Source: Arcobacteraceae bacterium (GTDB lineage Bacteria > Campylobacterota > Campylobacteria > Campylobacterales > Arcobacteraceae). From it: a DNA stretch of 64,000 nt. The stretch is from assembly GCA_963662945.1 (NCBI GenBank), contig OY759974.1, positions 544,001-608,000 on the forward strand, read 5' to 3'. Both the position numbers and the translations under genes were made by a program. The notes under the pieces are model-generated. The model searched no databases. It was given only the letters and a program-made list of their open reading frames with translations, and had not been told where the DNA came from. Shown piece by piece: positions 47,930 through 64,000 of this stretch; positions within the stretch are counted from its first letter, which is position 1; each line of letters begins with the position of its first letter.

Positions 47930-50900
47930 TTATTTTAATATTTGAATAATTCTTTCCACTATTTGACTAAGCCCTTTATCTAACTCATTTCTATTTGCAA
48001 GGTCTTTTAAAGACAAAATTGTTTCTTCACTTTGTTTAGTGAGTGGATTTATATTTTTTCCATAAGCAAGATATTGAAATTTACCAAGTCCTAAAATAGC
48101 CTCTTGTTTTTCAGTTGGATTTTTTATTGCACTTCCTAATTTATCTAATCCTACAAAATCACTTACTATAACTGGTAAAATCTTCTTATTAGTATTTTGA
48201 GCTATCATCTCCATCCCTTTTACAACCTCCTCTTCTAAAATATAAGCAGATGTAAAAAAGTTAGCTGAAAGCATATAAATTATTAGGTCACTTTCCTCAA
48301 GCTCTCTTTGAATTTGATCATGCCATTTACCAATTTGTATATCCTCACAAGCCCAATTGTCAGCTAAATCAAAAAACTTTAATACACTTAAGTGTTTTCT
48401 TAATTCGTCTCTAAAATCAATATCTTTTCTTGAATATGATATAAATATCTTTTTCATCTTACTTATCTCCTTGTTATCTGAAATATTTTTAAATGCTCTT
48501 GTTGAAAGAACTATACTATTTTCTTTATTTATTTGTTTCTCTTTTATATTAAAAGCGATAATTTGTTCTTTTGTTTTTTCTTCATCTTCTAGTGTTTTAT
48601 AATGAACAAAGTGTTTGTTATTTAACGATATATATAAATCATCAGGAATAACCTTTTTAGTTTGTAATCTTTTTTCTAAAATTTCATTATTCTCTTTATG
48701 TTTGTTCTGTTCTATCTCATTTTCTTTTCTTGATGGATATAATTTACTTTCATATATTTCAATATCATTATATAACATCAATATCTCTTCAAAAAGGTAT
48801 TTCTGTGTCTCATCTATATCTTTTTTTGAAGTTTTATTATCCCCTATTACATATAATTTTATTTTTAATTCTTCAAAATCAAGTCTTATAAATACTTTGA
48901 TATGTTTATTGTTAAGTGTAAAAAGTAGCACATCTTTCCAATATTTCTTTATATCAGGAGTTCTGCCGTAAATACTAATCAATCGATTCATAAATCCAAA
49001 AGGAATAAAATACTCAAACTTCAAAGTTATACAAGGTGTTTGTATATCAAAGATATATAAAAAATCAGAACTATCTTCATTTATCCTAGGAAGATAACTA
49101 GGAACTATATAATACTTTTCGTTTGATATATCATCTGAAAATATCACTTTATTTTCTATAAGCATTAACACCAAATTTTCATCATTACAAAGTTTTCCAA
49201 ATTTATCTTTTGGTACTCTCCCTTTGTATGTAGATAGACTAGATACATCGAATATCTCATCATGTATTTTTTTTAGTGTTTTAGATGGATTAAGCCACGC
49301 TATTTTTGATAGTTCTTTATTATGAGGATAATAAAGTATCAATCCCTGCCTTGCAAGTTGATTTAAAATAAAATTAATTCTCTCTTTTGCATCTGGAAAC
49401 TTATCTACTATTGCAGATATTTCTATAGCATCGGGGCTATTTTGTTCAAAGATATATTTTTCTACTGCTATATCTATAGGGAGCTTTTTTATCATTTCAC
49501 TATTATCTATCTCATTTTTTAAATGTTTTTTTAATGAATCTAAATCTATATCATTAGTATTTTTATTATTTATATGAAACTGTCTATATATTTTTTTTGA
49601 AAGAATTTTATTATCCAAAAACTCTACACCATCATCATCAATATGTGTTTGAATAAGCCAGTACCTATTTAATAATACTTTTTCTTTATCTTTTTTATCA
49701 CCATTACTATTATAATTTTCATCAAAATTCCAAAGCTGTTTTATCCAATAATCTTTTGTAAAATTCTGAGTCTTTTCATTTCTTTTACTTTCATCATCAG
49801 ATAGAGTATTATTATCAGTTTGTTTTTTCCAAAAAATTAAACTTGTGGCATGATTTGTCATAAATGCTTTATATATCCCATGATAATAATCTTGTCCACC
49901 AAAATCATATATAATAGCTTTTTTATTTTCGTTATTTGGATAGGAAACAATATTAAGTATATGAGTACTTCCTGTTTGTGAATTATCTTCTATAAAGTGA
50001 TTTAAAAATTCACTCTTACCTGAGCTGTGATTTCCAACTAGCATTATTTTTTTTATACTTTTTATATCTTTTGCACTTTTACTACTAATACCTTGAAAAT
50101 AATCTTTTAGATCTTGAAGATTATTTGAGTCATAAGTTTCATCAAGCTTGAAATCAATTAATTCTTCTAAAAAAGGATTTTTGTAAATCCGCAATTCATC
50201 AAGTTCAGGTAAAGATTTTAACTCTTTTATACTCTTCATATCACTTATCTGATTCCTTGATAAATCTAATTTTTGTAAAGATTTTAACTCTTTTATACTC
50301 TCTATATCACTTATCTGATTATTTGATAAATATAATGTTTGTAAAGATTTTAACTCTTTTATACTCTTTATATCACTTATCTGATTATTTGATAAATATA
50401 ATGTTTGTAAAGATTTTAACTCTTTTATACTCTTTATATCACTTATCTGATTACTCCATAAATATAATGCTTGTAAAGATTTTAACTCTTTTATACTCTC
50501 TATATCACTTATCTGATTATTTGATAAATATAATGTTTGTAAAGATTTTAACTCTTTTATACTCTTTATATCACTTATCTGATTATCTGATAAATCTAAT
50601 TCTTGTAAAGATTTTAACTCTTTTATACTCTCTATATCATTTATCTTATTATATGATAAATCTAATTCTTGTAAAGATTTTAACTCTTTTATACTCTCTA
50701 TATCACTTATCTGATTATCTGATAAATCTAATTCTTGTAAAGATTTTAACTCTTTTATACTCTCTATATCATTTATCTGATTCCTTGATAAATATAATGT
50801 TTGTAAAGATTTTAACTCTTTTATACTCTTTATATCACTTATCTGATTACTCCATAAATATAATGTTTGTAAAGATTTTAACTCTTTTATACTCTTTATA

Positions 50901-51319
50901 TCACTTATCTGATTACTCCATAAATATAATGTTTGTAAAGATTTTAACTCTTTTATACTCTTTATATCACTTATCTGATTCCTTGATAAATCTAATTTTT
51001 GTAAAGATTTTAACTCTTTTATACTCTCTATATCACTTATCTGATTATCTGATAAATCTAATTTTTGTAAAGATTTTAACTCTTTTATACTCTCTATATC
51101 ACTTATCTGATTATCTGATAAATCTAATTTTTGTAAAGATTTTAACTCTTTTATACTCTCTATATCACTTATCTGATTATTTGATAAATTTAAACCTACT
51201 ATATTATTATCTTTATCTAATACATAGCCACCTTGATAGATGTTATATACCTCTTCTAAAGTAATACCATATGTTTTTTCCAATTCTAATATTAAATTTG
51301 GTTTTTCATTTTTCTTCAT
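47930..51319 (-). CDS. LRR-Roc-COR-TIR protein (bacterial Roco with C-terminal TIR)
   Basis: 15 LRRs; P-loop GNHSSGKS, STH, DFGGQ, THID; COR-like region; TIR IFISYSRKD...LSANFF.S.YI...E (47930-48457). Confidence 0.88.
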   Translation of the reverse strand: MKKNEKPNLILELEKTYGITLEEVYNIYQGGYVLDKDNNIVGLNLSNNQISDIESIKELKSLQKLDLSDNQISDIESIKELKSLQKLDLSDNQISDIESIKELKSLQKLDLSRNQISDIKSIKELKSLQTLYLWSNQISDIKSIKELKSLQTLYLWSNQISDIKSIKELKSLQTLYLSRNQINDIESIKELKSLQELDLSDNQISDIESIKELKSLQELDLSYNKINDIESIKELKSLQELDLSDNQISDIKSIKELKSLQTLYLSNNQISDIESIKELKSLQALYLWSNQISDIKSIKELKSLQTLYLSNNQISDIKSIKELKSLQTLYLSNNQISDIESIKELKSLQKLDLSRNQISDMKSIKELKSLPELDELRIYKNPFLEELIDFKLDETYDSNNLQDLKDYFQGISSKSAKDIKSIKKIMLVGNHSSGKSEFLNHFIEDNSQTGSTHILNIVSYPNNENKKAIIYDFGGQDYYHGIYKAFMTNHATSLIFWKKQTDNNTLSDDESKRNEKTQNFTKDYWIKQLWNFDENYNSNGDKKDKEKVLLNRYWLIQTHIDDDGVEFLDNKILSKKIYRQFHINNKNTNDIDLDSLKKHLKNEIDNSEMIKKLPIDIAVEKYIFEQNSPDAIEISAIVDKFPDAKERINFILNQLARQGLILYYPHNKELSKIAWLNPSKTLKKIHDEIFDVSSLSTYKGRVPKDKFGKLCNDENLVLMLIENKVIFSDDISNEKYYIVPSYLPRINEDSSDFLYIFDIQTPCITLKFEYFIPFGFMNRLISIYGRTPDIKKYWKDVLLFTLNNKHIKVFIRLDFEELKIKLYVIGDNKTSKKDIDETQKYLFEEILMLYNDIEIYESKLYPSRKENEIEQNKHKENNEILEKRLQTKKVIPDDLYISLNNKHFVHYKTLEDEEKTKEQIIAFNIKEKQINKENSIVLSTRAFKNISDNKEISKMKKIFISYSRKDIDFRDELRKHLSVLKFFDLADNWACEDIQIGKWHDQIQRELEESDLIIYMLSANFFTSAYILEEEVVKGMEMIAQNTNKKILPVIVSDFVGLDKLGSAIKNPTEKQEAILGLGKFQYLAYGKNINPLTKQSEETILSLKDLANRNELDKGLSQIVERIIQILK
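50213..51202 (-). repeat. 15 x 66-bp coding tandem repeat (22-aa LRR)
   Basis: Unit LQxLxLxxNQISDIxSIKELKS with an almost invariant DNA framework. Confidence 0.95.
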
Positions 51320-52613: not shown

Positions 52614-54425
52614 CTATTTTATACTGTGAATTGTAGCGAAGTTCCCATTTGTTTTTACTAACCCTGATAATTTTTGTTGCTCCTGTTTAGTAATAATTTC
52701 ACTTTTTAAAAGTTCTCCTAAAATTGCTCCCGTTGTTCGTTCTAATTTTAAAGCTATTTGATCTATAGTATTTCCTTTTTTAAACATACTTTTGAGTTTT
52801 ATTTTATCTTCTAAACTCCATTTAAGTCCACTATTTTTAGCTTTTCCATCTTCTTGATTTTTTTGCTGTCGAAGGAGTTCTTTATCTTCTTGTTGCATTT
52901 TAGATGCACTAACTTTTTTCCCTGATTGTATCGCTTCTATATTTGCTTTTGCATCTTTGATTCTAGTGTCTATAAGTTTATCTACATTTTTAGCCATAAG
53001 ATAGTGAAAATTCTCACTATCTTTAACAAGTGCTTTTTTTGCTCTAGTAATAGCTACATAAAACAAATTAAATTCATCAAGAAGTTCTTGATTTGGTAGA
53101 AAGTTCTGCTCTTGCTTAAACTCCTCTAAACTATCACAACCAAAATCAACTATCAAATCTGCAAAATCTGTAAAGTCATCAGCTATCGTTACTCTGTCCC
53201 ACTCTAAACCTTTTGCAGTATGTGCTGTTGTTAAAAAGAGTATCTCTTGAAGCCTTTGTTCAAAGCCATTATTTGTTCTATTTTTCCAAGCATCATAAAA
53301 CTTTTTTGCTACCTCTTGAAATTCAAATATCTTTTCTTTATACTCTTTGGCAACTTTAAGTGCTGATTTTAGTTCAAAATCTTCAACCTCTTTTGCATAC
53401 TCTACAATATCTTCTTCACTACTAAAATCTTTTAAAAATCTATTTCGTACTATTTTTTCTTTTTGCTCATTAAGAAAATAATATACTTCAATAGTAAGAT
53501 TAAATATCTCATTTGGATCTCTTACTGTTACAAAAGGTTTTCTTTCATCTATTCGAGTAGAAATAGTAGCTATAAGTTGTGCATTTGTTCTTGAGATATA
53601 TCCACTTGTATTTATTGTTTTATCTCTATCTTTTGATGCTTCTATCTCTACATTTTCATTTTTAAATTTACCTAATAATTTATTGGCATACTGTGCTATA
53701 TCGTTATTAAATCTAAAACTGGAACTTAAATATAGTTTTTTATCACATTTAATTTTATCCAAGGCATTTTTACTTCCACGAAATGAGTAAATTTGTTGGT
53801 GTTTATCACCCACATATATTTTTGTTTTTGAACTTAAAGCTTCAAAGATACCTAATGTCACTTCATTTGTGTCTTGTGCTTCATCAAGCATAATAATATC
53901 GTAAGTGAATTGTGGGATTTGTTCAGAGGAAAGAAGAAGAAAATAGTACTTTAAATAAAAGCTATGAGTTGGTTTCATCTTTCCTAGTAGCATCAGGTCA
54001 AACATCTTTTGAGCACTTTTATGTTCTATATCATCTTTACCTATCTCTTGTTTTGTATTATTACAAAAATTTTCAAATATTTTTAAAGTACCTATTGCTT
54101 GATTATAAGTAATTCCAAACTCTTTTGATATATCAATTGCTCTATAATTTACAAGAGAATCCAAATTTACTTTAGTATATTTTTTTACTGCAACATAGGC
54201 TAAACCATGGGTTGTTTTTACACTTGTATTAGAAGGAAATATATTTGAGGCTTCATTTTTAATAGCACTGTTAAAAGCAAGATAAAGTATTTTTTTATTA
54301 TGATATTCTTGTGCTATAAGTTTTAAAGTGGTTGTTTTACCAGTACCTGCAAAAGCATTTATTTTTATATTTCTATACTGTTTTATAGATTCTAAAATCT
54401 CTTTTTGTTGTTGAGTTATTTTCAT
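52614..54425 (-). CDS. UvrD-like superfamily 1 helicase
   Basis: AFAGTGKTT, YLAFN, DEAQD, VGD.HQQIY.FRG, TAHTAKGLEW, YVAITRAK. Confidence 0.9.
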   Translation of the reverse strand: MKITQQQKEILESIKQYRNIKINAFAGTGKTTTLKLIAQEYHNKKILYLAFNSAIKNEASNIFPSNTSVKTTHGLAYVAVKKYTKVNLDSLVNYRAIDISKEFGITYNQAIGTLKIFENFCNNTKQEIGKDDIEHKSAQKMFDLMLLGKMKPTHSFYLKYYFLLLSSEQIPQFTYDIIMLDEAQDTNEVTLGIFEALSSKTKIYVGDKHQQIYSFRGSKNALDKIKCDKKLYLSSSFRFNNDIAQYANKLLGKFKNENVEIEASKDRDKTINTSGYISRTNAQLIATISTRIDERKPFVTVRDPNEIFNLTIEVYYFLNEQKEKIVRNRFLKDFSSEEDIVEYAKEVEDFELKSALKVAKEYKEKIFEFQEVAKKFYDAWKNRTNNGFEQRLQEILFLTTAHTAKGLEWDRVTIADDFTDFADLIVDFGCDSLEEFKQEQNFLPNQELLDEFNLFYVAITRAKKALVKDSENFHYLMAKNVDKLIDTRIKDAKANIEAIQSGKKVSASKMQQEDKELLRQQKNQEDGKAKNSGLKWSLEDKIKLKSMFKKGNTIDQIALKLERTTGAILGELLKSEIITKQEQQKLSGLVKTNGNFATIHSIK

Positions 54426-54480
54426 AAAGAAATTGTAACAGAATTTTTACAAGAGATAAAAAAATATTGCATTATGCAAT

Positions 54481-55059
54481 TTAAACAAAATTCTCTATTT
54501 GTAAAATCTCTTTAATAAAGATTTCAAAATCAGCTTTACAACTTCCAGCAAAACTGTTTTCTAAAAATTTATTTATCCCTTTATTTCTATGTTGTACTAT
54601 TGGAACTATTTTTATCCCTGTAATTTCAGACATAAAATGTGACTCATCTGCTTCTTCATACGCATGATTTAAAATTGATCTTGAAAAGTTATTTAAGATA
54701 TGATAATAGATATGTAAAAACTCGAGTTCATTTACCTTTAAAGCATAAAGATGTGTTACAAATTTTTCATCTTCATGGGAAACTACCCCTTGTACTTTTT
54801 CAGGTCGTACGCGAATACCAACTTCTTCTTTGATTTCCCGTACTAATGCATCTAAAAGAGGTTCCCCCTCTTCTAATGTTCCACCTGGAAAACCAATCCG
54901 TCCATCCCATCTATCAATCATAATAACAGCAGGGCAACGCGTGTGTTTTATATCGTCATTGAAGTATTTCCAAGGGGCTATCTCATCTGTATAAATTGAT
55001 AAGAAAACTGCATTTTTTTTATGATGATTAATCTCTCCAAAAGGGATTCGATTACTCAA
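54481..55059 (-). CDS. Nudix hydrolase, NUDT16-like
   Basis: RWDGRIGFPGG, REIKEEVG, FLENSFAGS; probable TTG start at 55059 overlapping the alr stop. Confidence 0.85.
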   Translation of the reverse strand: MSNRIPFGEINHHKKNAVFLSIYTDEIAPWKYFNDDIKHTRCPAVIMIDRWDGRIGFPGGTLEEGEPLLDALVREIKEEVGIRVRPEKVQGVVSHEDEKFVTHLYALKVNELEFLHIYYHILNNFSRSILNHAYEEADESHFMSEITGIKIVPIVQHRNKGINKFLENSFAGSCKADFEIFIKEILQIENFV

Positions 55060-56062
55060 TAATAACCCTTTTAATAGATGGTTTAAGGTTTGTAAGTATT
55101 TCATAGGTGATTGTGTTATGAACTTGCGCTAAATTTTTTGCATTATCAAAAACACATACTTGATTTTCTACTGATTCTACAAAAAAACTATCCATAGAAA
55201 CACGACCTAATATCTCTAATCCATTTGCTATTTTTCGAGACTTTTGTGTATTAGCACGACTTAAACCATCACCATAACCAATATCATAATTTGATACAAT
55301 CATATCACAAGGTGCAATAAAAGCATCGCTTCCATACCCTATATGGTCACCTTGTACAATCTCTTTTGTTGCGATTTTTTGTGCATAAAGAGAGAGAACT
55401 GGTTGTAGCTCTTTTTCTTCTTCAGTATCAAGGTAACCATAAATACCAATTCCTACTCTTGCCATGTCATATTGAGTCATATCTACTTTAAAAACACCTG
55501 TACTATTTGCACAATGTACTCTAAAGTTATAATCTATATATTTTTGTGTCTCTTTGATAGCTAATTGAAAATTTTCTTCTTGTTCTTTAGTAATACTATT
55601 TTCTTCATCTGAACAGCAAAAATGTGTAAAAATACCATTTAAAATAAGATGTTTGTTTTGTATCATTTCACAAGCTTTTTGTATCTCATTGATATAAATA
55701 CCATTTCGATTCATTCCTGTATCAATTTTTAATTCAACTTTACTACCGTTTGGAATTTGTTCTAAAAAAGCAAGTGAGTTTATAGATATTATGATACTTT
55801 GATCTTGTTTTGTGGTTGGAATATCATAAAGAACTAAAATTGACTCAAAATTAAATTTCAAAGCGATATGTGCTTCAGTCAAATCCCTTACAAATACATG
55901 TTTTATCCCATATTTACTTGCCATTGAAGCAACTTTTTCTGTTCCATGTCCGTAAGCATTGTCTTTTAAAGCTATAGCTAATTTGTTTTTAGAACCACAA
56001 GCTTTAGAAAAGAAATCTAAATTATGAAAAAAAGCTTTTTGATTTAGTTGAATATATCCCAT
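55052..56062 (-). CDS. alr: Alanine racemase
   Basis: LKDNAYGHG, KIDTGMNRNG, GYGDG, GRVSMD, TITYE. Confidence 0.93.
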   Translation of the reverse strand: MGYIQLNQKAFFHNLDFFSKACGSKNKLAIALKDNAYGHGTEKVASMASKYGIKHVFVRDLTEAHIALKFNFESILVLYDIPTTKQDQSIIISINSLAFLEQIPNGSKVELKIDTGMNRNGIYINEIQKACEMIQNKHLILNGIFTHFCCSDEENSITKEQEENFQLAIKETQKYIDYNFRVHCANSTGVFKVDMTQYDMARVGIGIYGYLDTEEEKELQPVLSLYAQKIATKEIVQGDHIGYGSDAFIAPCDMIVSNYDIGYGDGLSRANTQKSRKIANGLEILGRVSMDSFFVESVENQVCVFDNAKNLAQVHNTITYEILTNLKPSIKRVIIE

Positions 56063-56063
56063 T

Positions 56064-56918
56064 TTATTTTTGTAAAAATTGTGTACCTATACCATCACTT
56101 GTAAATAGTTCAAGTAAAATACTATGTTCAACTCTTCCATCTATAATATGAGCTTTATGTACGCCATTATAAATTGCTTCAATACAACTATCAACTTTTG
56201 GTATCATTCCACCAGCAATTGTTCCATCATCTTTGTATCGTTGTACATCTTCTTTGTCAAGTGAATTTAAAAGCTCTTTATTTTTATCTAAAACACCAAC
56301 AGTATCTGTTAAAAATAATACTTTATTTGCTTTTAGTGCTATAGCTATTTGAGCTGCTGCAATATCTGCATTGATATTAAATCCCGGATGATTTGGACTC
56401 TCACTGTTTGCAATAGGAGCAATAACAGGAACAAATCCCTCTTTAATCAAATCTTCAATCATCTGAGCATTGATAGAAGTAACTTCACCTGTATAACCAA
56501 ATTTTCCACCATCTTTTGGTTGAGCTTCAATACAATTACTATCTTTTCCACTAATACCAATAGCTTTTGTTCCATGATAATTTAAAAGTGAAGTGATATT
56601 TTTATTGATTTCACCACTTAAAACCATTTCAACAATTCTCATACTCTCTTCACAAGTTACTCTATGCCCATCAACAAATGTAGATGGAATCTGTAGTTTG
56701 TTTAACATATCAGATATTTTAGCACCACCACCGTGTACAATAACAGGTTTTATACCAACAAGTTGTAAAAGTGTAATATCTCTAGCAAATTTTTCTTGTA
56801 ACTCTGGACTTGTTTGTGCACTTCCACCATACTTTATAACAATTGTTTTATTTCTGAACTCTTTGATATAAGGAAGGGCATCAAGAAGTGTTTTGATTTT
56901 TTCTTGTTTTAATTTCAT
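56064..56918 (-). CDS. argB: Acetylglutamate kinase
   Basis: VIKYGG, VHGGG, NINAD, GGMIPKV, ELFT..GIGT. Confidence 0.95.
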   Translation of the reverse strand: MKLKQEKIKTLLDALPYIKEFRNKTIVIKYGGSAQTSPELQEKFARDITLLQLVGIKPVIVHGGGAKISDMLNKLQIPSTFVDGHRVTCEESMRIVEMVLSGEINKNITSLLNYHGTKAIGISGKDSNCIEAQPKDGGKFGYTGEVTSINAQMIEDLIKEGFVPVIAPIANSESPNHPGFNINADIAAAQIAIALKANKVLFLTDTVGVLDKNKELLNSLDKEDVQRYKDDGTIAGGMIPKVDSCIEAIYNGVHKAHIIDGRVEHSILLELFTSDGIGTQFLQK

Positions 56919-57286
56919 ATATGTTGTCTTTTTAGTTTATTTTTATTCTTTAAAAATATATATTTATCAGGATCAAGACTATCAAGAAAATCTATAATAT
57001 TTCTATCTTTCATTTTAATAGCATACATATAAGTTTCACTACTTACATGTGCACCATTATTTACTAAAAATTCTACAGCTTCTAAATGTCTATCTTTAAT
57101 AGCATAATCCAACGCTGTCATATTAAGAGCATCTTTATCATTTATTCTAGCGGCATAACTCAATAATAATCCCATAGAAATAGTATCATTATTTCTAGCA
57201 AAATGCATCAAAAGGGTAAAACCATTTGCATCAGATGTATTTGCATCTGCCCCATTTCGTAATAAATTAAATAAATCCTCTTTCAT
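56915..57286 (-). CDS. Ankyrin-repeat protein
   Basis: GADAN..D.NG.T.LM, TALDYA, FLVNNGA. Confidence 0.85.
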   Translation of the reverse strand: MKEDLFNLLRNGADANTSDANGFTLLMHFARNNDTISMGLLLSYAARINDKDALNMTALDYAIKDRHLEAVEFLVNNGAHVSSETYMYAIKMKDRNIIDFLDSLDPDKYIFLKNKNKLKRQHI

Positions 57287-57294
57287 GACATCTA

Positions 57295-58659
57295 CTAACT
57301 CTTAAAACTATTTATAATAAATTTTGCAGCTACTTTACCATCAGCTGCTGCAGTAACAGCTAAATCTGCACCTCTTACACTATCTCCACCAGCATAAATC
57401 TTAGGATTAGATGTTTGGTATTTTTCATTTACTTTTAATCCATTCCATTTATCTAATTCTAAACCACTCTCTTTGATAAAAGTAGGTAACTCTTGATCAA
57501 ATCCAAGTGCAAGTATAATTATATCAGCTTCTTCTAAATATTCACTATTTTCTATAATTTGAACACTTTGTCTTCCTGAACCATCTGGCTCACTCATTTT
57601 AGTTTCTAAAACAAGTACACCCTCTTTTACAATAGCTTTTGGAGAAACATTAAATACAAATTCAACACCCTCTTCTTTTGAGTTAACAACCTCTTTTTTA
57701 CTTCCAGGCATATTTGCTTCATCTCTTCTATAAAGACATTTTACAGATGATGCACCTTCTCTTATAGATGTTCTTACACAGTCCATAGCAGTATCTCCAC
57801 CACCTATTACAACTACGTTTTTATCTTTAACATCTATAAATAATGGATTTTCTTCTTCAAAATTTCTTTTTTGAATTCCTGTTAAAAACTCCATTGCCAA
57901 ATAAACATTTTCGTTGTTCTCACCATCAATATTTGGTAATTTCCCTTTTGTTGCACCAATTCCTAAAAATACTGCATCATAAGATTTTTCTAATTCTTCA
58001 AATGATTTATCTTTACCAATTTCACAATTTGTATAAAGATTCATACCAGCCTCTACAAGCCAATCAATTCTTCTTTGTACTCTAAATTTATCAAGTTTAA
58101 ATCCTGGTATTCCGTATGTTAAAAGTCCACCTGCTCGACTAGCTCTTTCATACATATCTACATCAACACCTGCTCTTAAAAGAAAAGTTGCCACACTAAT
58201 ACCAGCTGGTCCACTTCCTACAACTGCAACTTTTTTTCCTATTTTATGTGTAGCAAATTTTGGTTTTAATCCTTGTTCAAATCCAGTTTCACTAATATGT
58301 GTTTCAACTGCTCCAATAGTAATAGCTCCATGAGTATCATTTAAAGTACAATCTCCCTCACATAATACATCTTGAGGACATATTCTTCCTAAAATTTCAG
58401 GAAAAGGTGAAGTTTCATTTGAAATATTAAAAGCTAATTCAATATCATTTTGTGCTGTTTGTTTTAACCATGCAGGAATTATGTTATGCAATGGACATTT
58501 ATTATGACAATATGGGTCACCACATCCTATACATCTATCAGCTTGCTCTTGTGCTTTATTTTTATCGAACACATTATACACTTCACTGAAGTCTTTAATT
58601 CTCTCCATAACCCCTCTTTTTGAAGGGTTATTTCTATCTACTTTTGTAAAATTTAACAT
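57295..58659 (-). CDS. gltD: Glutamate synthase small subunit
   Basis: RCIGCGDPYC, GRICPQ..LCEG.C, GSGPAG, GGGDTAMDC. Confidence 0.95.
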   Translation of the reverse strand: MLNFTKVDRNNPSKRGVMERIKDFSEVYNVFDKNKAQEQADRCIGCGDPYCHNKCPLHNIIPAWLKQTAQNDIELAFNISNETSPFPEILGRICPQDVLCEGDCTLNDTHGAITIGAVETHISETGFEQGLKPKFATHKIGKKVAVVGSGPAGISVATFLLRAGVDVDMYERASRAGGLLTYGIPGFKLDKFRVQRRIDWLVEAGMNLYTNCEIGKDKSFEELEKSYDAVFLGIGATKGKLPNIDGENNENVYLAMEFLTGIQKRNFEEENPLFIDVKDKNVVVIGGGDTAMDCVRTSIREGASSVKCLYRRDEANMPGSKKEVVNSKEEGVEFVFNVSPKAIVKEGVLVLETKMSEPDGSGRQSVQIIENSEYLEEADIIILALGFDQELPTFIKESGLELDKWNGLKVNEKYQTSNPKIYAGGDSVRGADLAVTAAADGKVAAKFIINSFKS

Positions 58660-58663
58660 TCTA

Positions 58664-61600
58664 TTAATCTCCCTGCTCTGGGTTTAAAGGTAAAATTGTC
58701 ATATCTTTTGGTTTTACCATCCAGAAATTTCTAATCTCTGATCTAAAATCTTCTAATATCTCTTCTGCTTTTAAAGACTCTGTTTCTTTGAGATAATCTT
58801 TAAGTGTATTTTTTAAATAAATTCTTTCTAATTCTGTATCATCTGTATCAATTCTAAGAGCTTCAATTAACTCTTGATTCATTTTATCTGTAAACTCTCT
58901 ATGTGGATCGTAAATAAATGCTAATCCACCTGTCATACCTGCACCAAAGTTAATACCTGTTTGACCTAAAATCACAACAATACCACCTGTCATATATTCA
59001 CAAGGAGAATCTCCTGTTCCTTCAACAACAGCAATTGCTCCAGAATTTCGTACTGCAAATCGCTCTCCTACAGAAGCTCTTACATAAAGTTTTCCACCTG
59101 TTGCACCATAAAGACATGTATTTCCAGCACCTGCGTATTCACTTCCTTGTAGTGTTGGTTTAATAACAACTTTACCACCACTCATACCTTTTCCCACATA
59201 GTCATTTGCTATACCATCAAGATAGATTGAAACACCACGACTAAGGAATGTTCCAAAAGATTGTCCTGCAACACCTGTCAAATTATATGTAATAGTATCT
59301 TCAGGAAGTCCAGCATCTCCATATCTTTTTGCAATCTCACCTGATGTTAAAGTACCAAAACTTCTATTTAAGTTAGAAATTTGTGCATCTACTGTTACAG
59401 GAATACTTGGACTTTGAATTGTTGGTAAAACTTTTCTCAATAATTTATGAGAATCTTCATTTTGATCATAAGGCACATTCGAATTTACTTGACAAGTATC
59501 AACTCCATCAATTCTTCTTAATACATTTTGGAAATCAAATTTTTGTGAGAATTCATCATCAAGAACTTTTAATAAATCACTTCTACCAATAATTTGTTCT
59601 AATGATGTATATCCTAATGATGCTAATATTTCTCGAACATCTTGAGCTAAAAATTCAAAATAAGAAATAAGTCTTTCAACTGTACCACTAAATTTTTCTC
59701 TTAAATCTTCATCTTGAGTTGCAACACCAACACTACACTTGTTTGTATGACAAATTCTTAGTATTTTACAACCAAGAAGTGTAAGTACTGAAGTACCAAA
59801 TGCGTAACTCTCAGCTCCTAACATCGCTGCTTTTACTACATCAAGACCTGTTTTTAATCCACCATCTGTTTGAAGATGAACCATACCTCTTAAATGATTT
59901 GCTTTTAATGAATTATGCGCTTCACTAAGACCTAATTCCCAAGCATTTCCAGTATGTTTAATAGATGTTAATGGTGCTGCACCTGTTCCACCATCGGCAC
60001 CACTAATAATAATTTTATCAGCATATGCTTTTGCAACACCTGATGCAATTGTTCCAACACCAATTGAAGAAACAAGTTTAACAGCCACTTTTGCTTTTGG
60101 ATTGATTTGTTTTAAATCAAAAATCAACTGTGCTAAATCCTCAATAGAATAAATATCATGATGAGGAGGTGGTGAAATTAATGTAACACCTGGTGTTGTA
60201 TGTCTTAATGTTGCAATCATAGGAGTTACTTTAGATCCTGGTAACTGTCCACCCTCTCCTGGTTTTGCACCTTGTGCTAACTTAATTTGTAACTCTTCAC
60301 AGTTTACTAAGTATCCTGGTGTTACACCAAATCTTCCTGAAGCAACTTGTTTGATTTTAGAGTTTTTAAGTGTCCCAAATCTTGCAGGATCTTCTCCACC
60401 TTCACCTGAGTTACTTTGTGCACCGATAGTATTCATAGCAACAGCAATCGCTTCATGTGCTTCAACAGAGATAGAACCACAAGACATAGCAGCAGCTGCA
60501 AATCTTTTAAAAACTTCCTCTTTTGACTCAACTTCATCAATACTAATTGCCGCTTTATCACTATTAAATTCGAAGAAATCTCTAATAAATTTTTGACCTC
60601 TATTTTCTACTAAAGATTTTAGACCTTTGAAATCACTAATATCTTCTTTGTCTGTTGCATTTTTATTATGCATAGCATGTGTAATAGCTGGTGCATAATC
60701 ATGATATTCTCCACCATCAATATATTTATAAAATCCACCCATATTTAAAGGGAACATAGATTTATCATCAAAATATGCATCATAGTGTACAACTTCTATT
60801 CTTTTTTCAATATCTTCATATCCAAGACCAGCTAAATCGCTGTTTGCATGTTCAAAACAATCTTTTACAATTTGGTCACTTAATCCCATAATATCAAATA
60901 ATGAAGAGTTTCTATAACTTGCAATTGTAGCAATACCCATTTTTGACATAATTTTTAATAATCCAGCACCTATAGCTTTCATACTATTTTTTAATTTTTT
61001 TTGTAATTCATAATGAGAAATATTTTTTCTTTCATAATATGATACAATTGAAGCATACATCATATATGGATAGATTACAGATACACCAAATGCGATTAAT
61101 ACAGCTGCACTATGTGGATCATAAACTTCACTTGTAACTGCAACTATTGAAACTCTACTTCTTATTTTGTCATTTTGAAGTTGATGATTGATATATCCTA
61201 CTGCCATTGCCATAGGTATAACTTTAGAATCCTTTGATACATCTCTATCATCTAATATTACAATACTAATATTTTCATTAATTACCGCATCTTTTACATT
61301 TAAATAAAGATTTTTTAGTGATGTTTCTAAATCTGTTGTAAATGTTGTACTAAAATTTTTATTTTGAAAATCTTCATCATATAATGGATCTTTAGCATCT
61401 CCAAATCTTTTCATAACATCAAATTTTTCTTTCATTAAAATTGGACTTACCGCTTTTAATCTTTTTGAATTGTGTTCACTTTCTTCTAATACATTATATG
61501 CATGACCAAGTCCTGTATTTAAAGACATAACTATCTTTTCTCTATATGGATCAATTGGTGGGTTTGTAACTTGTGCAAACTTTTGTCTAAAGAAATCTGT

Positions 61601-63100
61601 AAAGTTTCTTTTTACATTTGAAAAACATGCTAATGGAGTATCATCTCCCATAGAACCAGTTGGTTCTTTTCCATCATCAGCCATAGGAATAATCATCTGA
61701 TCTAATGTTTCATAAGTGATATTTGCATATTTTTGTCTATGTTCTAAATCATCAAATTTATAATCTTCTAAATCTGTAAATGTATCTTCTACATATTCTT
61801 GAAGATATTGCATATTTGATGTAAGCCATTTTTCATAATTTTGAGTAGATTTTAAATAATTATTGATATCATCATTTTTTAATATTTTACCACTATTTAA
61901 ATCAACAGCAATCATTTGACCACTTTGTAATCTTCCTCTATCAATAATCTCTTCATCAGGAATTAATACTGTTCCATATTCACTTGTGATAAAAAGTCTA
62001 TCATCTTTTGTTTGAAAATATTTTGATGGTCTTAAACCGTTTCTATCAATTAAACACCCTATATGTCTTCCATCTGTTAAAGATACTGCTGCTGGACCAT
62101 CCCAAGCTTCAAATCTAATTGCACAATATTCATAAAAAGCTCTTAATTCTGAGTCCATATATGGAGCATTTTGCCAAGGAGCTGGAACTAAACTTCGTGC
62201 AGCTTTAAAAAAGTCCATACCATTTATCATTAGAAATTCAAACATATTATCTAAAGAGGCACTATCACTTCCACCATCTTGTAAAAGTGGGAAAATTCTT
62301 TCCAATTCTTCATCACTAAATATTTCAGATTTTATTGCTTCTGTTTTTACTAATACATTAAATCTATTTGCTTCAACAGAGTTTATCTCACCGTTGTGTG
62401 CTATTCCTCTAAATGGTTGCGCAAGTCTCCATTTTGGTAATGTATTTGTTGAGAATCTTTGGTGAAAGAGTGCAAAAGATATTTTGAAATCTTGATCATT
62501 TAAATCAAGATAAAACTGCTTAATAGTAGTAGGCATAACAAGCCCTTTATAAGCAATCACTTTTGAACTAAATGTTGGAATATAAAAATCTTCTTGATCT
62601 TTTAATGCGTGTTCTGATTCTTTTCTTGCAAGATATAACATCGCATCAAATCTTTTTGAAGAGATTAAAGTATTTGGTACAACAAATACTTGTGTAATCT
62701 CAGGTAATATTGCTAAGGCTTGTTCACCTAAAGCATCTGTATTTACAGGAACTTCTCTACTTAACAATACTTTTAAATCATTTTTCTCACAATAATATTT
62801 AAAAGTTTCTAGCTGTGCTTCCCCTTTTGAAAATACCATTGCAACTGCATAAAGCTTTGGAAGGTCAACTCCATTTTGCATTGCAACTTTTCGCATAAAC
62901 TCATCTGGAATTGATAAAAGCAATCCACTTCCATCTCCACTTTTACCATCAGCTGCAACTGCACCTCTGTGCATCATTCTCTCTAATGCTGTTATAGCAT
63001 CCTCTAAATTTTGATGTGTTTGTTTATTTTTTAAGTGAGCTACTAGTCCAAACCCACAATTGTCTTTGAAAGAAGTTAATTTGTCTAAATTACATCCCAT
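58664..63100 (-). CDS. gltB: Glutamate synthase large subunit
   Basis: CGFG N-terminal Cys, HQRFSTNT, QVASGRFGV, AQGAKPGEGGQL, C-terminal GXGXG region. Confidence 0.97.
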   Translation of the reverse strand: MGCNLDKLTSFKDNCGFGLVAHLKNKQTHQNLEDAITALERMMHRGAVAADGKSGDGSGLLLSIPDEFMRKVAMQNGVDLPKLYAVAMVFSKGEAQLETFKYYCEKNDLKVLLSREVPVNTDALGEQALAILPEITQVFVVPNTLISSKRFDAMLYLARKESEHALKDQEDFYIPTFSSKVIAYKGLVMPTTIKQFYLDLNDQDFKISFALFHQRFSTNTLPKWRLAQPFRGIAHNGEINSVEANRFNVLVKTEAIKSEIFSDEELERIFPLLQDGGSDSASLDNMFEFLMINGMDFFKAARSLVPAPWQNAPYMDSELRAFYEYCAIRFEAWDGPAAVSLTDGRHIGCLIDRNGLRPSKYFQTKDDRLFITSEYGTVLIPDEEIIDRGRLQSGQMIAVDLNSGKILKNDDINNYLKSTQNYEKWLTSNMQYLQEYVEDTFTDLEDYKFDDLEHRQKYANITYETLDQMIIPMADDGKEPTGSMGDDTPLACFSNVKRNFTDFFRQKFAQVTNPPIDPYREKIVMSLNTGLGHAYNVLEESEHNSKRLKAVSPILMKEKFDVMKRFGDAKDPLYDEDFQNKNFSTTFTTDLETSLKNLYLNVKDAVINENISIVILDDRDVSKDSKVIPMAMAVGYINHQLQNDKIRSRVSIVAVTSEVYDPHSAAVLIAFGVSVIYPYMMYASIVSYYERKNISHYELQKKLKNSMKAIGAGLLKIMSKMGIATIASYRNSSLFDIMGLSDQIVKDCFEHANSDLAGLGYEDIEKRIEVVHYDAYFDDKSMFPLNMGGFYKYIDGGEYHDYAPAITHAMHNKNATDKEDISDFKGLKSLVENRGQKFIRDFFEFNSDKAAISIDEVESKEEVFKRFAAAAMSCGSISVEAHEAIAVAMNTIGAQSNSGEGGEDPARFGTLKNSKIKQVASGRFGVTPGYLVNCEELQIKLAQGAKPGEGGQLPGSKVTPMIATLRHTTPGVTLISPPPHHDIYSIEDLAQLIFDLKQINPKAKVAVKLVSSIGVGTIASGVAKAYADKIIISGADGGTGAAPLTSIKHTGNAWELGLSEAHNSLKANHLRGMVHLQTDGGLKTGLDVVKAAMLGAESYAFGTSVLTLLGCKILRICHTNKCSVGVATQDEDLREKFSGTVERLISYFEFLAQDVREILASLGYTSLEQIIGRSDLLKVLDDEFSQKFDFQNVLRRIDGVDTCQVNSNVPYDQNEDSHKLLRKVLPTIQSPSIPVTVDAQISNLNRSFGTLTSGEIAKRYGDAGLPEDTITYNLTGVAGQSFGTFLSRGVSIYLDGIANDYVGKGMSGGKVVIKPTLQGSEYAGAGNTCLYGATGGKLYVRASVGERFAVRNSGAIAVVEGTGDSPCEYMTGGIVVILGQTGINFGAGMTGGLAFIYDPHREFTDKMNQELIEALRIDTDDTELERIYLKNTLKDYLKETESLKAEEILEDFRSEIRNFWMVKPKDMTILPLNPEQGD

Positions 63101-63233
63101 TATTTTCCTTTATGTGTTTTATCTCTATTTATTAAAATTTGTTTGTATTTAAGAGATAGTCTAAGATTATCTTACATTATTACGGCGATTTTATCTAATT
63201 TTTGTTTAAAATGGCGTTAAATAAAAACAATAA

Positions 63234-63266
63234 AAAAAGGTGATAGAAAAACTCTATCACCTTTTT
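63234..63266 (-). terminator. Intrinsic terminator after glnA
   Basis: aaaaaggtgataga-aaaac-tctatcaccttttt. Confidence 0.85.
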
Positions 63267-63292
63267 AAAACCCTAATAAATAAAAATTTATA

Positions 63293-64000
63293 TTAACAAG
63301 AATAAGTACTGATAAACTCAAACGCAGTTGGTCTAGCTTCATCTGGCCAAACTTGTCTTTCAAATAAATAATGTTGATATGTATCAACAAATTCTTTTGT
63401 AAATACAGGTTGTAAGAATTCATTATCTCTAATTAAAGCTTCTAAAGAACCTCTTAATGTATGTGGCATTTGAGGAATACCTTTCTCTCTAATCTCATCT
63501 AAACTTAATTCAAATAAATCTTCATCCATTGGTCCTACTGGTACATCTTTATTTTTAATACCATCAAGTCCAGCCATCATCATAGCTGCAAATGCTAAGT
63601 ATGGACAAGCTGTTGAATCTGGGAATCTCATCTCAACTCTTACAGCTTTTTCACCAGCTCCATAAGGGATTCTACAAGATGCAGATCTATTTTGTGAAGA
63701 GTAAGTTAAAATTGATGGTGCTTCAAATCCTGGAATTAATCTTTTGTATGAGTTTGTTGATGGATTTGTAAATGCAGCAACTGCACGTGCGTGTTTAAAA
63801 ATTCCACCTACATAGTTTAGTGCCATCTCTGAAAGGTTTCCGTATGCACCTTCTTGGAAGAATAAGTTTTTACCATCTTTCCATAATGATTGGTGTACGT
63901 GCATACCATTTCCATTATCACCATAAAGTGGTTTTGGCATAAATGTACAAGTTTTACCATTTAAGTGTGCAACCATTTTACATACATATTTGTATTTTTG
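63293..64000 (-). CDS. glnA: Glutamine synthetase type I, C-terminal part (runs off the window)
   Basis: [46 protein letters not shown]. Confidence 0.95.

Follow-up and report, generated by a model that had tools for sequence, protein, structure and literature searches.

The question raised by this locus is whether a bacterial gene encodes a member of the NUDT16 family and, if so, what such an enzyme does in a host without nucleus or snoRNA and, to our knowledge, without m7G caps. In the accessible text of a study of 57 metazoans, NUDT16 was described as metazoan, and neither prokaryotes nor phages were mentioned (PMC2566886). A 2025 survey, in its accessible part, regarded PF22327 as 'likely' limited to animals (PMC12210691).

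Family assignment, active site, and predicted dimer

The gene was analysed in a window of 64,000 nucleotides, i.e., the whole stretch of DNA. Residue numbers were mapped via primate NUDT16, and residue roles were taken from PMC4485890 and PMC6459841. The gene and the features of its product are as follows.

54481..55059, minus strand: gene of the Nudix hydrolase assigned to the NUDT16 family, TTG start, 192 aa
54901..54921, minus strand: residues 47-53, with Arg50 and Asp52, phosphate-binding in NUDT16 (same numbers in the primate protein; PMC4485890)
54814..54882, minus strand: Nudix box, residues 60-82, GX5EX7REUXEEXGU, with Glu75, Glu78, and Glu79 (NUDT16 Glu76, Glu79, and Glu80)
54655..54723, minus strand: lengthened helix, residues 113-135, a family insertion of some 14-15 residues compared with NUDT16
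54529..54627, minus strand: residues 145-177, with Glu145 (NUDT16 Glu136), dimer strand 147-153, and the purine-pocket helix, in which Ala171, Ser173, and Asp177 correspond to NUDT16 Ile164, Ser166, and Gln170

The TTG start overlaps the stop codon of alr, the alanine racemase gene, by 8 nt. In four close relatives, stop codons interrupt the 15 codons that separate an ATG at 55104 from the TTG, and most of the 120 homologues listed are 188-206 aa long. The longer form of 207 aa from this ATG is probably too long because of the in-frame stops in relatives, and 54481-55059, the coordinates of the initial annotation, are the better gene call. The gene has a GC content of 0.32 and a GC3 of 0.20, and its neighbours are close in both. 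It lies within a co-oriented run with short gaps, from gltB to an LRR-Roc-TIR gene.

By Pfam search, the 192-aa form matched PF22327 (Nudt16-like) at 67.9 bits (E 1e-18, cut-off 27) versus 41.2 bits for generic NUDIX, and the 207-aa form gave 67.5 versus 41 bits. T4 NudE, included as a control, did not match PF22327 and was rejected as a characterised family member. NUDT16/X29 entries were the best 10 of 49 matches in the PDB sequence search. Identity to primate NUDT16 was 32% over 146 aligned columns, and identity to animal NUDT16 proteins was 24-27% in an alignment with environmental relatives. The best library match was PHROG 9999 (87.5 bits), which covered nearly the whole length. In NCBIfam, all 11 matches were far below the cut-offs (best, 39.2 bits versus 154.4 required), and the ordinary bacterial Nudix equivalogs, i.e., MutT, RppH, NudE, NudI, and YtkD, were rejected on this ground.

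The AlphaFold model, based on an alignment of 47 sequences, had a pLDDT of 80.8 and a pTM of 0.82. In the fold search, NUDT16, X29, and TIRR structures took ranks 1-22 (Z 16.2-17.9, 153-172 residues, rmsd 2.4-2.7), and the next-ranked Nudix fold had a Z of 13.3. Foldseek agreed with a NUDT16-type fold. The ESM Atlas returned first a Campylobacterota cluster, probably that of the query itself, then one with 85% viral members, and third a cluster from arthropods; each is PF22327.

Profile, fold, catalytic residues, and the predicted dimer together make it almost certain that the 192-aa protein is a NUDT16-family member, as the initial annotation had proposed for a prokaryotic enzyme. The five motifs that it quoted are all present in the translation and align with NUDT16 in the order given, and the likeness does extend beyond the generic Nudix box, on which the bit scores, PDB matches, and fold ranks agree. 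Neither the best matches nor the tree placement fell within ordinary bacterial Nudix families.

The protein shares with NUDT16/X29 the fold (Z 17-18), Arg50, Asp52, Phe57, and Gly59, the Nudix glutamates, the equivalent of Glu136, and, by prediction, the strand-paired homodimer. The bacterial box is the canonical GX5EX7RE, whereas the vertebrate box is GX5DX8RE (PMC5389931), and the bacterial model differs further in a strand-like N-terminus and a near-invariant inserted helix. TIRR, i.e., Syndesmos or NUDT16L1, has the same fold with a tied Z score, but the bacterial protein has the whole Nudix box and TIRR was described as inactive for decapping (PMC2566886). T4 NudE (gp e.1) and ordinary bacterial Nudix proteins have the Nudix box and the core fold in common with it, with Z of at most 13.3.

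The residues R50, D52, F57, G59, G60, E75, E78, E79, and E145 were invariant in 120/120 family members listed, and E75, E78, E79, and E145 were kept in 140/140 other non-animal relatives. The base pocket lacks His24 and Gln170 of the metazoan orthologues and has Phe19 and Asp177 instead. The His24 position is Phe in 120/120 family members and in 135/140 other non-animal relatives, and the Gln170 position is Asp or Glu in 120/120 and 117/140, i.e., the non-animal relatives as a group resemble the bacterial family at both sites. The pocket also has Ala for Ile164 and Thr for Phe61. With four pocket residues differing from NUDT16, specificity cannot simply be carried over.

The insertion extends helix 111-134 in the model. 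Residues 113-135 are the most conserved block of the family, with a mean column conservation of 0.97 versus 0.81 for the Nudix box region. A NUDT16-type homodimer was predicted in the two-copy run (ipSAE 0.66 versus 0.00 for the best control, contact agreement of at least 81%, pLDDT 82). The mark for a dimer was reached by 20/30 solved homodimers and 1/23 single chains, and the pass may stem from likeness to solved NUDT16 dimers. In the predicted dimer, strand 147-153 is paired like strand G of NUDT16, helices contact each other near residue 122, and the inserted helix packs on its twin.

Distribution, inheritance, and relatives outside Campylobacterales

The family is tight within Campylobacterales, with 63-95% identity. 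Full-length matches (at least 60%) were found in 12/27 same-genus genomes, in 0/9 other genera of the family, and in 0/24 single representatives of other families. PF22327 was found in 10/400 genomes drawn from the phylum, i.e., 7/34, 2/19, and 1/20 in three families, and in none of the two largest families (0/118 and 0/158) or of the 14 control genomes. In one other family, the gene was present in 74/201 genomes. A GTDB pattern scan, whose pattern reaches close relatives only, gave 122 confirmed stretches. Of the 80 listed, most bear the titles Arcobacteraceae/Arcobacter, Sulfurimonas, Sulfuricurvum, Sulfurospirillum, and unclassified Campylobacterales. The MAGs L039 and L093 are titled 'Helicobacter pylori PMSS1' and 'Pseudomonadota bacterium', but recA groups them with Arcobacteraceae and Sulfuricurvum.

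For inheritance, 30 of the 80 loci were picked for spread; recA was present in 29, and the own genome completed the set. Trees of the gene and of recA showed largely the same groups with few differences. Pairwise identities of the gene and RecA were correlated (rho 0.75, 30 genomes, 435 non-independent pairs), and GC3 followed the host (rho 0.94). Median identity was 71% for the gene and 80% for RecA, and dN/dS was 0.02-0.08 in nine hand-picked pairs. Because the gene tree largely follows recA, the gene is old and mostly vertically inherited in free-living Campylobacterales, where it is ameliorated and strongly constrained. Its patchy presence is most readily taken as loss. Horizontal spread within Campylobacterales in recent times had been suspected because of the high identity and patchy presence, but is not supported in view of the recA-like tree and the matched GC3 and synonymous divergence. 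Given the few discordant placements, i.e., L087, a Sulfurimonas grouping, and the query relative to L040/L043, some horizontal transfer may have occurred.

Relatives in which the gene has a promoter of its own show a sigma-70-like -10 box: a -10 core was found in 37/53 upstream regions (shuffle mean 14, maximum 22). A promoter scan of the 64-kb window stayed at chance level (104 vs 97.7).

When 1.84 billion representatives were searched with a profile, 177 matches reached 1e-10 or below. The Campylobacterales family appeared as one full-length 50% cluster with fragments, and then came many diverse proteins of 160-280 aa. A profile of the distant matches returned only 8 proteins, and for 30 distant relatives, cluster look-ups yielded hardly any taxon names. 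By tblastn, 57 phage records were matched with the query and 84 with the relative P0129, and four Vibrio megaplasmids of 0.88-0.94 Mb were found at 29% identity. PF22327 was passed by 6/6 named phage and plasmid proteins tested. The jumbo-phage and megaplasmid Nudix proteins (PHROG 9999; 121Q, RaK2, CBB, Aeh1, and LAh_9; Vibrio 0.9-Mb plasmids) share PF22327 with the bacterial protein in these six cases. They differ from it in being mobile, without the inserted helix, and beside Sir2, cREC, or NADAR, at 25-34% identity.

Several features were observed beside these relatives. In the Vibrio 0.9-Mb 'plasmids' (L114:5959-7352), the Nudt16-like gene lies by NADAR, a Phd antitoxin, and many hypothetical genes, and these replicons may be phage-like megaplasmids. 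The nudE gene of Aeromonas phage Aeh1 (L115:1543-2094) was named by transfer from T4 NudE, yet its product passes PF22327; the two are probably different Nudix clades. Nudt16-like domains were also found fused with a Ham1/RdgB ITPase (P0163), HD (P0250), and ankyrin repeats (P0157).

In building the trees, 11/148 environmental candidates were excluded because their coverage was low, and P0123-P0128, being fragments or repeats, were left out from the start. A FastTree of 171 rows and a hand-picked mixture-model tree of 36 rows agreed. All animal sequences fell into a single long-branched clade (100/99), and support for the Campylobacterales family was likewise 100/99. The best-supported sisters of this family were the environmental proteins P0130-P0133 (97/96 support), which have an insertion at the same place. 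Only P0131 of these four was placed on viral contigs, i.e., IMG/VR contigs of 236 and 395 kb with a phage-like gene layout. On the 395-kb contig (L120), P0131 is surrounded by a tRNA nucleotidyltransferase-like gene, a PP-loop ATPase, a deaminase, two metallophosphoesterases, a kinase, and a radical SAM gene. The IMG/VR scans found no Campylobacterales family member, nothing for P0129, P0130, and P0132, and only a 41-residue match for P0135.

The tree is unrooted, as four ordinary Nudix outgroups of the own genome sat on long branches and not on one side of a branch. Since rooting failed and sisterhood with animals was unrejected, the direction of transfer is inferred only. NUDT16 is very probably one branch of a wide non-animal radiation of phages and prokaryotes. 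We infer that the Campylobacterales copy came by one early acquisition from a phage and megaplasmid pool of NUDT16-like genes, followed by patchy loss. For a viral source of both cellular lineages, i.e., animals and Campylobacterales, the balance leans somewhat to the negative. That the gene was taken from an animal host, an alternative for origin and not for function, is scarcely credible. A clade of the bacterial family with all animal NUDT16 was not rejected (p-AU 0.096), but nesting within vertebrates (AU p 5e-7) or arthropods (p 9e-8) was rejected and animals form a single clade. Moreover, identity to environmental relatives is 28-39% versus the 24-27% to animals in the same alignment, and Phe19 and the acid at 177 are common to non-animal relatives, whereas animals have His and Gln.

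Candidate functions and genomic context

The best explanation of the gene is a homodimeric, metal-dependent NUDT16-family pyrophosphohydrolase of housekeeping type that would clean up 6-oxopurine diphosphates. Its mechanism is drawn by homology, and the statement as a whole has slightly under an even chance of being right. The enzyme would be a divalent-metal-dependent homodimer, retained in free-living Campylobacterales as a gene of housekeeping type. Judging from NUDT16 structures, the purine would lie buried among Phe19 (in place of His24), Asp177 (in place of Gln170), and the backbone of Phe57. Arg50 would hold the alpha-phosphate, and metals on Glu75, Glu79, and Glu145 would activate water. 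Cleavage of the diphosphate would release a purine monophosphate from NDP or NDP-X, and the X group would be left exposed. The main job, which is the least certain step, may lie downstream of the RdgB/Ham1 ITPase or alongside it, in the clearing of IDP, XDP, and GDP-type and GppX dinucleotides. It would come with a side activity on ADP-ribose and capped RNA, as in the human enzyme.

Human NUDT16 has a strong preference for IDP and GppG, which it bound with a Kd below 100 nM (PMC8535469), and it recognises O6 through the backbone of Phe57 (PMC4485890). An acid at position 170 could accept the N1-H of I or G, but it does not discriminate, because Gln170 of NUDT16 also binds the adenine amine of ADP-ribose (PMC6459841). 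A Ham1/RdgB fusion was seen in one distant relative (P0163) among 19 homologues scanned. The rdgB gene itself was found in 35/38 genomes. Replacement of rdgB by the Nudix gene was rejected on this count, and with rdgB near-universal, the patchy presence of the Nudix gene is unexplained by rdgB. In G011, G015, and G020, rdgB lies 4-9 kb from the Nudix gene with other genes between, which was not counted as linkage. Simple house-cleaning poorly fits two observations, i.e., the co-occurrence with nitrogenase genes described below and the near-invariant inserted helix.

The main rival is the clean-up of ADP-ribose or O-acyl-ADP-ribose to AMP and ribose-5-phosphate, serving a SIR2-like protein of the nif cluster. 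The Nudix protein would then be a nitrogen-fixation accessory, and the two would echo the jumbo-phage pair of Sir2 and NUDT16-like genes. This is possible, though on balance rather doubtful. In phages 121Q, RaK2, and CBB, a Sir2-like gene directly precedes the Nudix gene; in CBB, the Nudix domain is fused to cREC and NAMPT lies some 3 kb upstream; and in a Vibrio megaplasmid, the Nudt16-like gene adjoins NADAR. An ADP-ribose context was thus found in 4/6 phage and plasmid regions read, which counts against 6-oxopurine house-cleaning, and no Sir2-, cREC-, or NADAR-type neighbour was present in the regions read of Aeh1 and LAh_9. The phage Sir2-Nudix-cREC neighbourhood has been published, with no mention of NUDT16 in the accessible main text (PMC9503650). 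In the pocket, Thr in place of Phe61 is similar to F61S, a mutation that widens the mouth (PMC6459841). Against this stands the human enzyme, which handles free ADP-ribose poorly, with a Km of about 840 uM (PMC6459841), and in one study was not seen to cleave it (PMC8535469).

Nitrogenase co-occurrence was tested because nif-like genes lie near two loci (nifX confirmed by tblastn, nifV by eye). In the own genus, gene and nifH were both present in 12 genomes, the gene only in 1, nifH only in 2, and neither in 13. In the other family, evenly drawn (n=201), the corresponding counts were 55, 19, 31, and 96, i.e., nifH occurred in 55/74 genomes with the gene versus 31/127 without (genus-stratified OR 9.0). 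The SIR2_2-like nif protein was found in 83/86 nifH genomes (OR 370) in this family without DraT. Gene and SIR2_2-like protein were both present in 60 genomes, with the gene only in 14, the SIR2 protein only in 31, and neither in 96, i.e., 60/74 versus 31/127 (OR 15.4). CobB-type Sir2, the single control gene, was found in 33/74 genomes with the gene versus 83/127 without (stratified OR 0.59, p 0.22), and a general Sir2 link was rejected for want of association. In the own genome, the SIR2_2-like protein (G000:C1:450926-451759; L187:5927-6760, minus strand) lies two genes from nifA. It had no Pfam match at 1e-4, and SIR2_2 clusters were matched at 0.97-0.99.

The association has gaps, as the gene was absent from 33/94 genomes with a nif marker and 13/74 genomes with the gene lacked both markers. 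By regex scan, a sigma-54 motif was found in 0/53 upstream regions and nowhere in the run from 54400 to 63400, whereas the own nifH has one. The nifD/K genes were within 6 kb in 1/80 loci. Membership in a NifA/sigma-54 regulon is not supported by the promoter scan for -24/-12 or by this nif location count. DraT was above the cut-off in 0/80 genomes. The own genome has no Macro or ARH/DraG match, which counts for the ADP-ribose reading, and the DraT count and the missing ARH/DraG match led us to reject a DraT/DraG switch-off link.

Related genomes are also not independent. On the alr tree of the own genus, only two changes of state are seen for the gene, which leaves one independent pair. In genus g24, the gene accompanies a single sequence type of nif cluster (14/18 vs 2/11, a post hoc split). 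Because the gene follows one cluster type there, the nif co-occurrence may reflect lineage or habitat. The g24 SIR2-like protein is of two types, with 68-75% and 45-50% identity to the Arcobacteraceae query. The sequences suggest that 11/29 g24 genomes took the nif cluster from an Arcobacteraceae-like donor.

Less likely still is an RNA 5'-end enzyme that would remove GppN, FAD, dpCoA, NAD, or Np4N caps beside RppH, with the inserted helix as an RNA or partner surface. NUDT16 orthologues bind and decap RNA across animals (PMC2566886), NUDT16 was solved with FAD (PDB 6X7U), and phage relatives lie in neighbourhoods proposed for RNA-end repair (PMC9503650). The near-RecA conservation of the gene and the 97%-conserved helix suggest a macromolecular partner, but the helix conservation is at least partly explained by the predicted dimer contact. 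The lack of m7G caps in bacteria also speaks against this role, as do an RppH-like Nudix gene in the own genome (identity by eye) and the absence of a recurring RNA-related neighbour in 80 loci.

A joint reading, in which the viral radiation gave both lineages their NUDT16 copies (in animals NUDT16 and later TIRR), and in which turnover of ADP-ribose by the nif SIR2-like and Nudix proteins would support N2 fixation without DraT/DraG, is quite improbable.

The initial annotation had also pointed to the location of the gene beside DNA-repair and TIR genes. Its description of the neighbours was right, i.e., a UvrD-like helicase, a DEDDh exonuclease, and an HhH-GPD glycosylase, with the LRR-Roc-TIR gene starting 3.2 kb downstream. 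The radiation in phages and megaplasmids, the vertical descent in Campylobacterales, and the nif co-occurrence had escaped it. Neighbours were surveyed in 80 related loci, up to 6 kb per side and in some loci less, with the following result for the window.

55052..56062, minus strand: alr, alanine racemase gene; adjoins the Nudix gene in 4/80 related loci and is nearby in 1 more; context
52614..54425, minus strand: UvrD-like helicase gene, downstream neighbour; within the flank in 5/80 related loci; context
47930..51319, minus strand: LRR-Roc-TIR gene; variable insertion, in 1/80 related loci; not a partner

No neighbour family conserved beyond one lineage was found in the 80 loci, and the lineage-specific neighbours were gltX, mnmA, rpl21/27, ftsY, and ppx. 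The LRR-Roc-TIR gene has a GC content of 0.24, and its TIR domain matches a ThsB-like model (E 5.6e-14). One close relative has it at the same site, and another cleanly lacks it; in a 95% identical locus (L034), the glycosylase gene is joined straight to the MFS gene and the TIR site is empty. It is a variable, possibly defensive insertion between these two genes. A TIR_2 match was found in 8/23 genomes with the Nudix gene and 2/15 without, i.e., 15/23 genomes with the gene show none. The only PADLOC match covers the Nudix box alone. From the locus and TIR_2 counts, membership in a Thoeris-like TIR-associated defence was rejected, and the location cannot be taken as meaningful. It is thus very improbable that the gene forms, with the TIR, helicase, exonuclease, and glycosylase genes, a local module of defence or DNA repair that removes ADP-ribose signals or adducts, and synteny largely refutes this already. 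In its favour, the genes share one orientation and lie close together, the ThsB-like match would fit, TIR_2 occurs in 6/13 genus genomes with the gene versus 2/15 without (p 0.096), and uvrA is directly upstream in 4/80 loci, but neighbours differ by lineage, and vertical inheritance with dN/dS below 0.1 is unlike defence genes.

Meaning for the NUDT16 family and its hosts

As far as searched, the bacterial NUDT16 branch within a large non-animal radiation was previously undescribed. No literature on bacterial or phage NUDT16-family proteins was found in a search of main texts with thin coverage of subscription journals, and the supplements of PMC9503650 and PMC7824862 may classify phage proteins. 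Automatic JGI and UniProt labels already name some members 'U8 snoRNA-decapping enzyme', and the likeness is thus already in databases, because automatic pipelines use the NUDT16 name. Promiscuous house-cleaning is, besides, common among Nudix enzymes.

The physiological substrate of NUDT16 is disputed, i.e., caps, IDP, or ADP-ribose. A chromosomal bacterial lineage with near-RecA constraint, from genera that have cultured members and lack nuclei, snoRNA, and m7G caps, opens the ancestral substrate to direct testing. The phage copies add candidates for a class of enzymes that act on molecules derived from NAD. Should the nitrogenase link prove causal, the gene would represent a new accessory function for diazotrophy.
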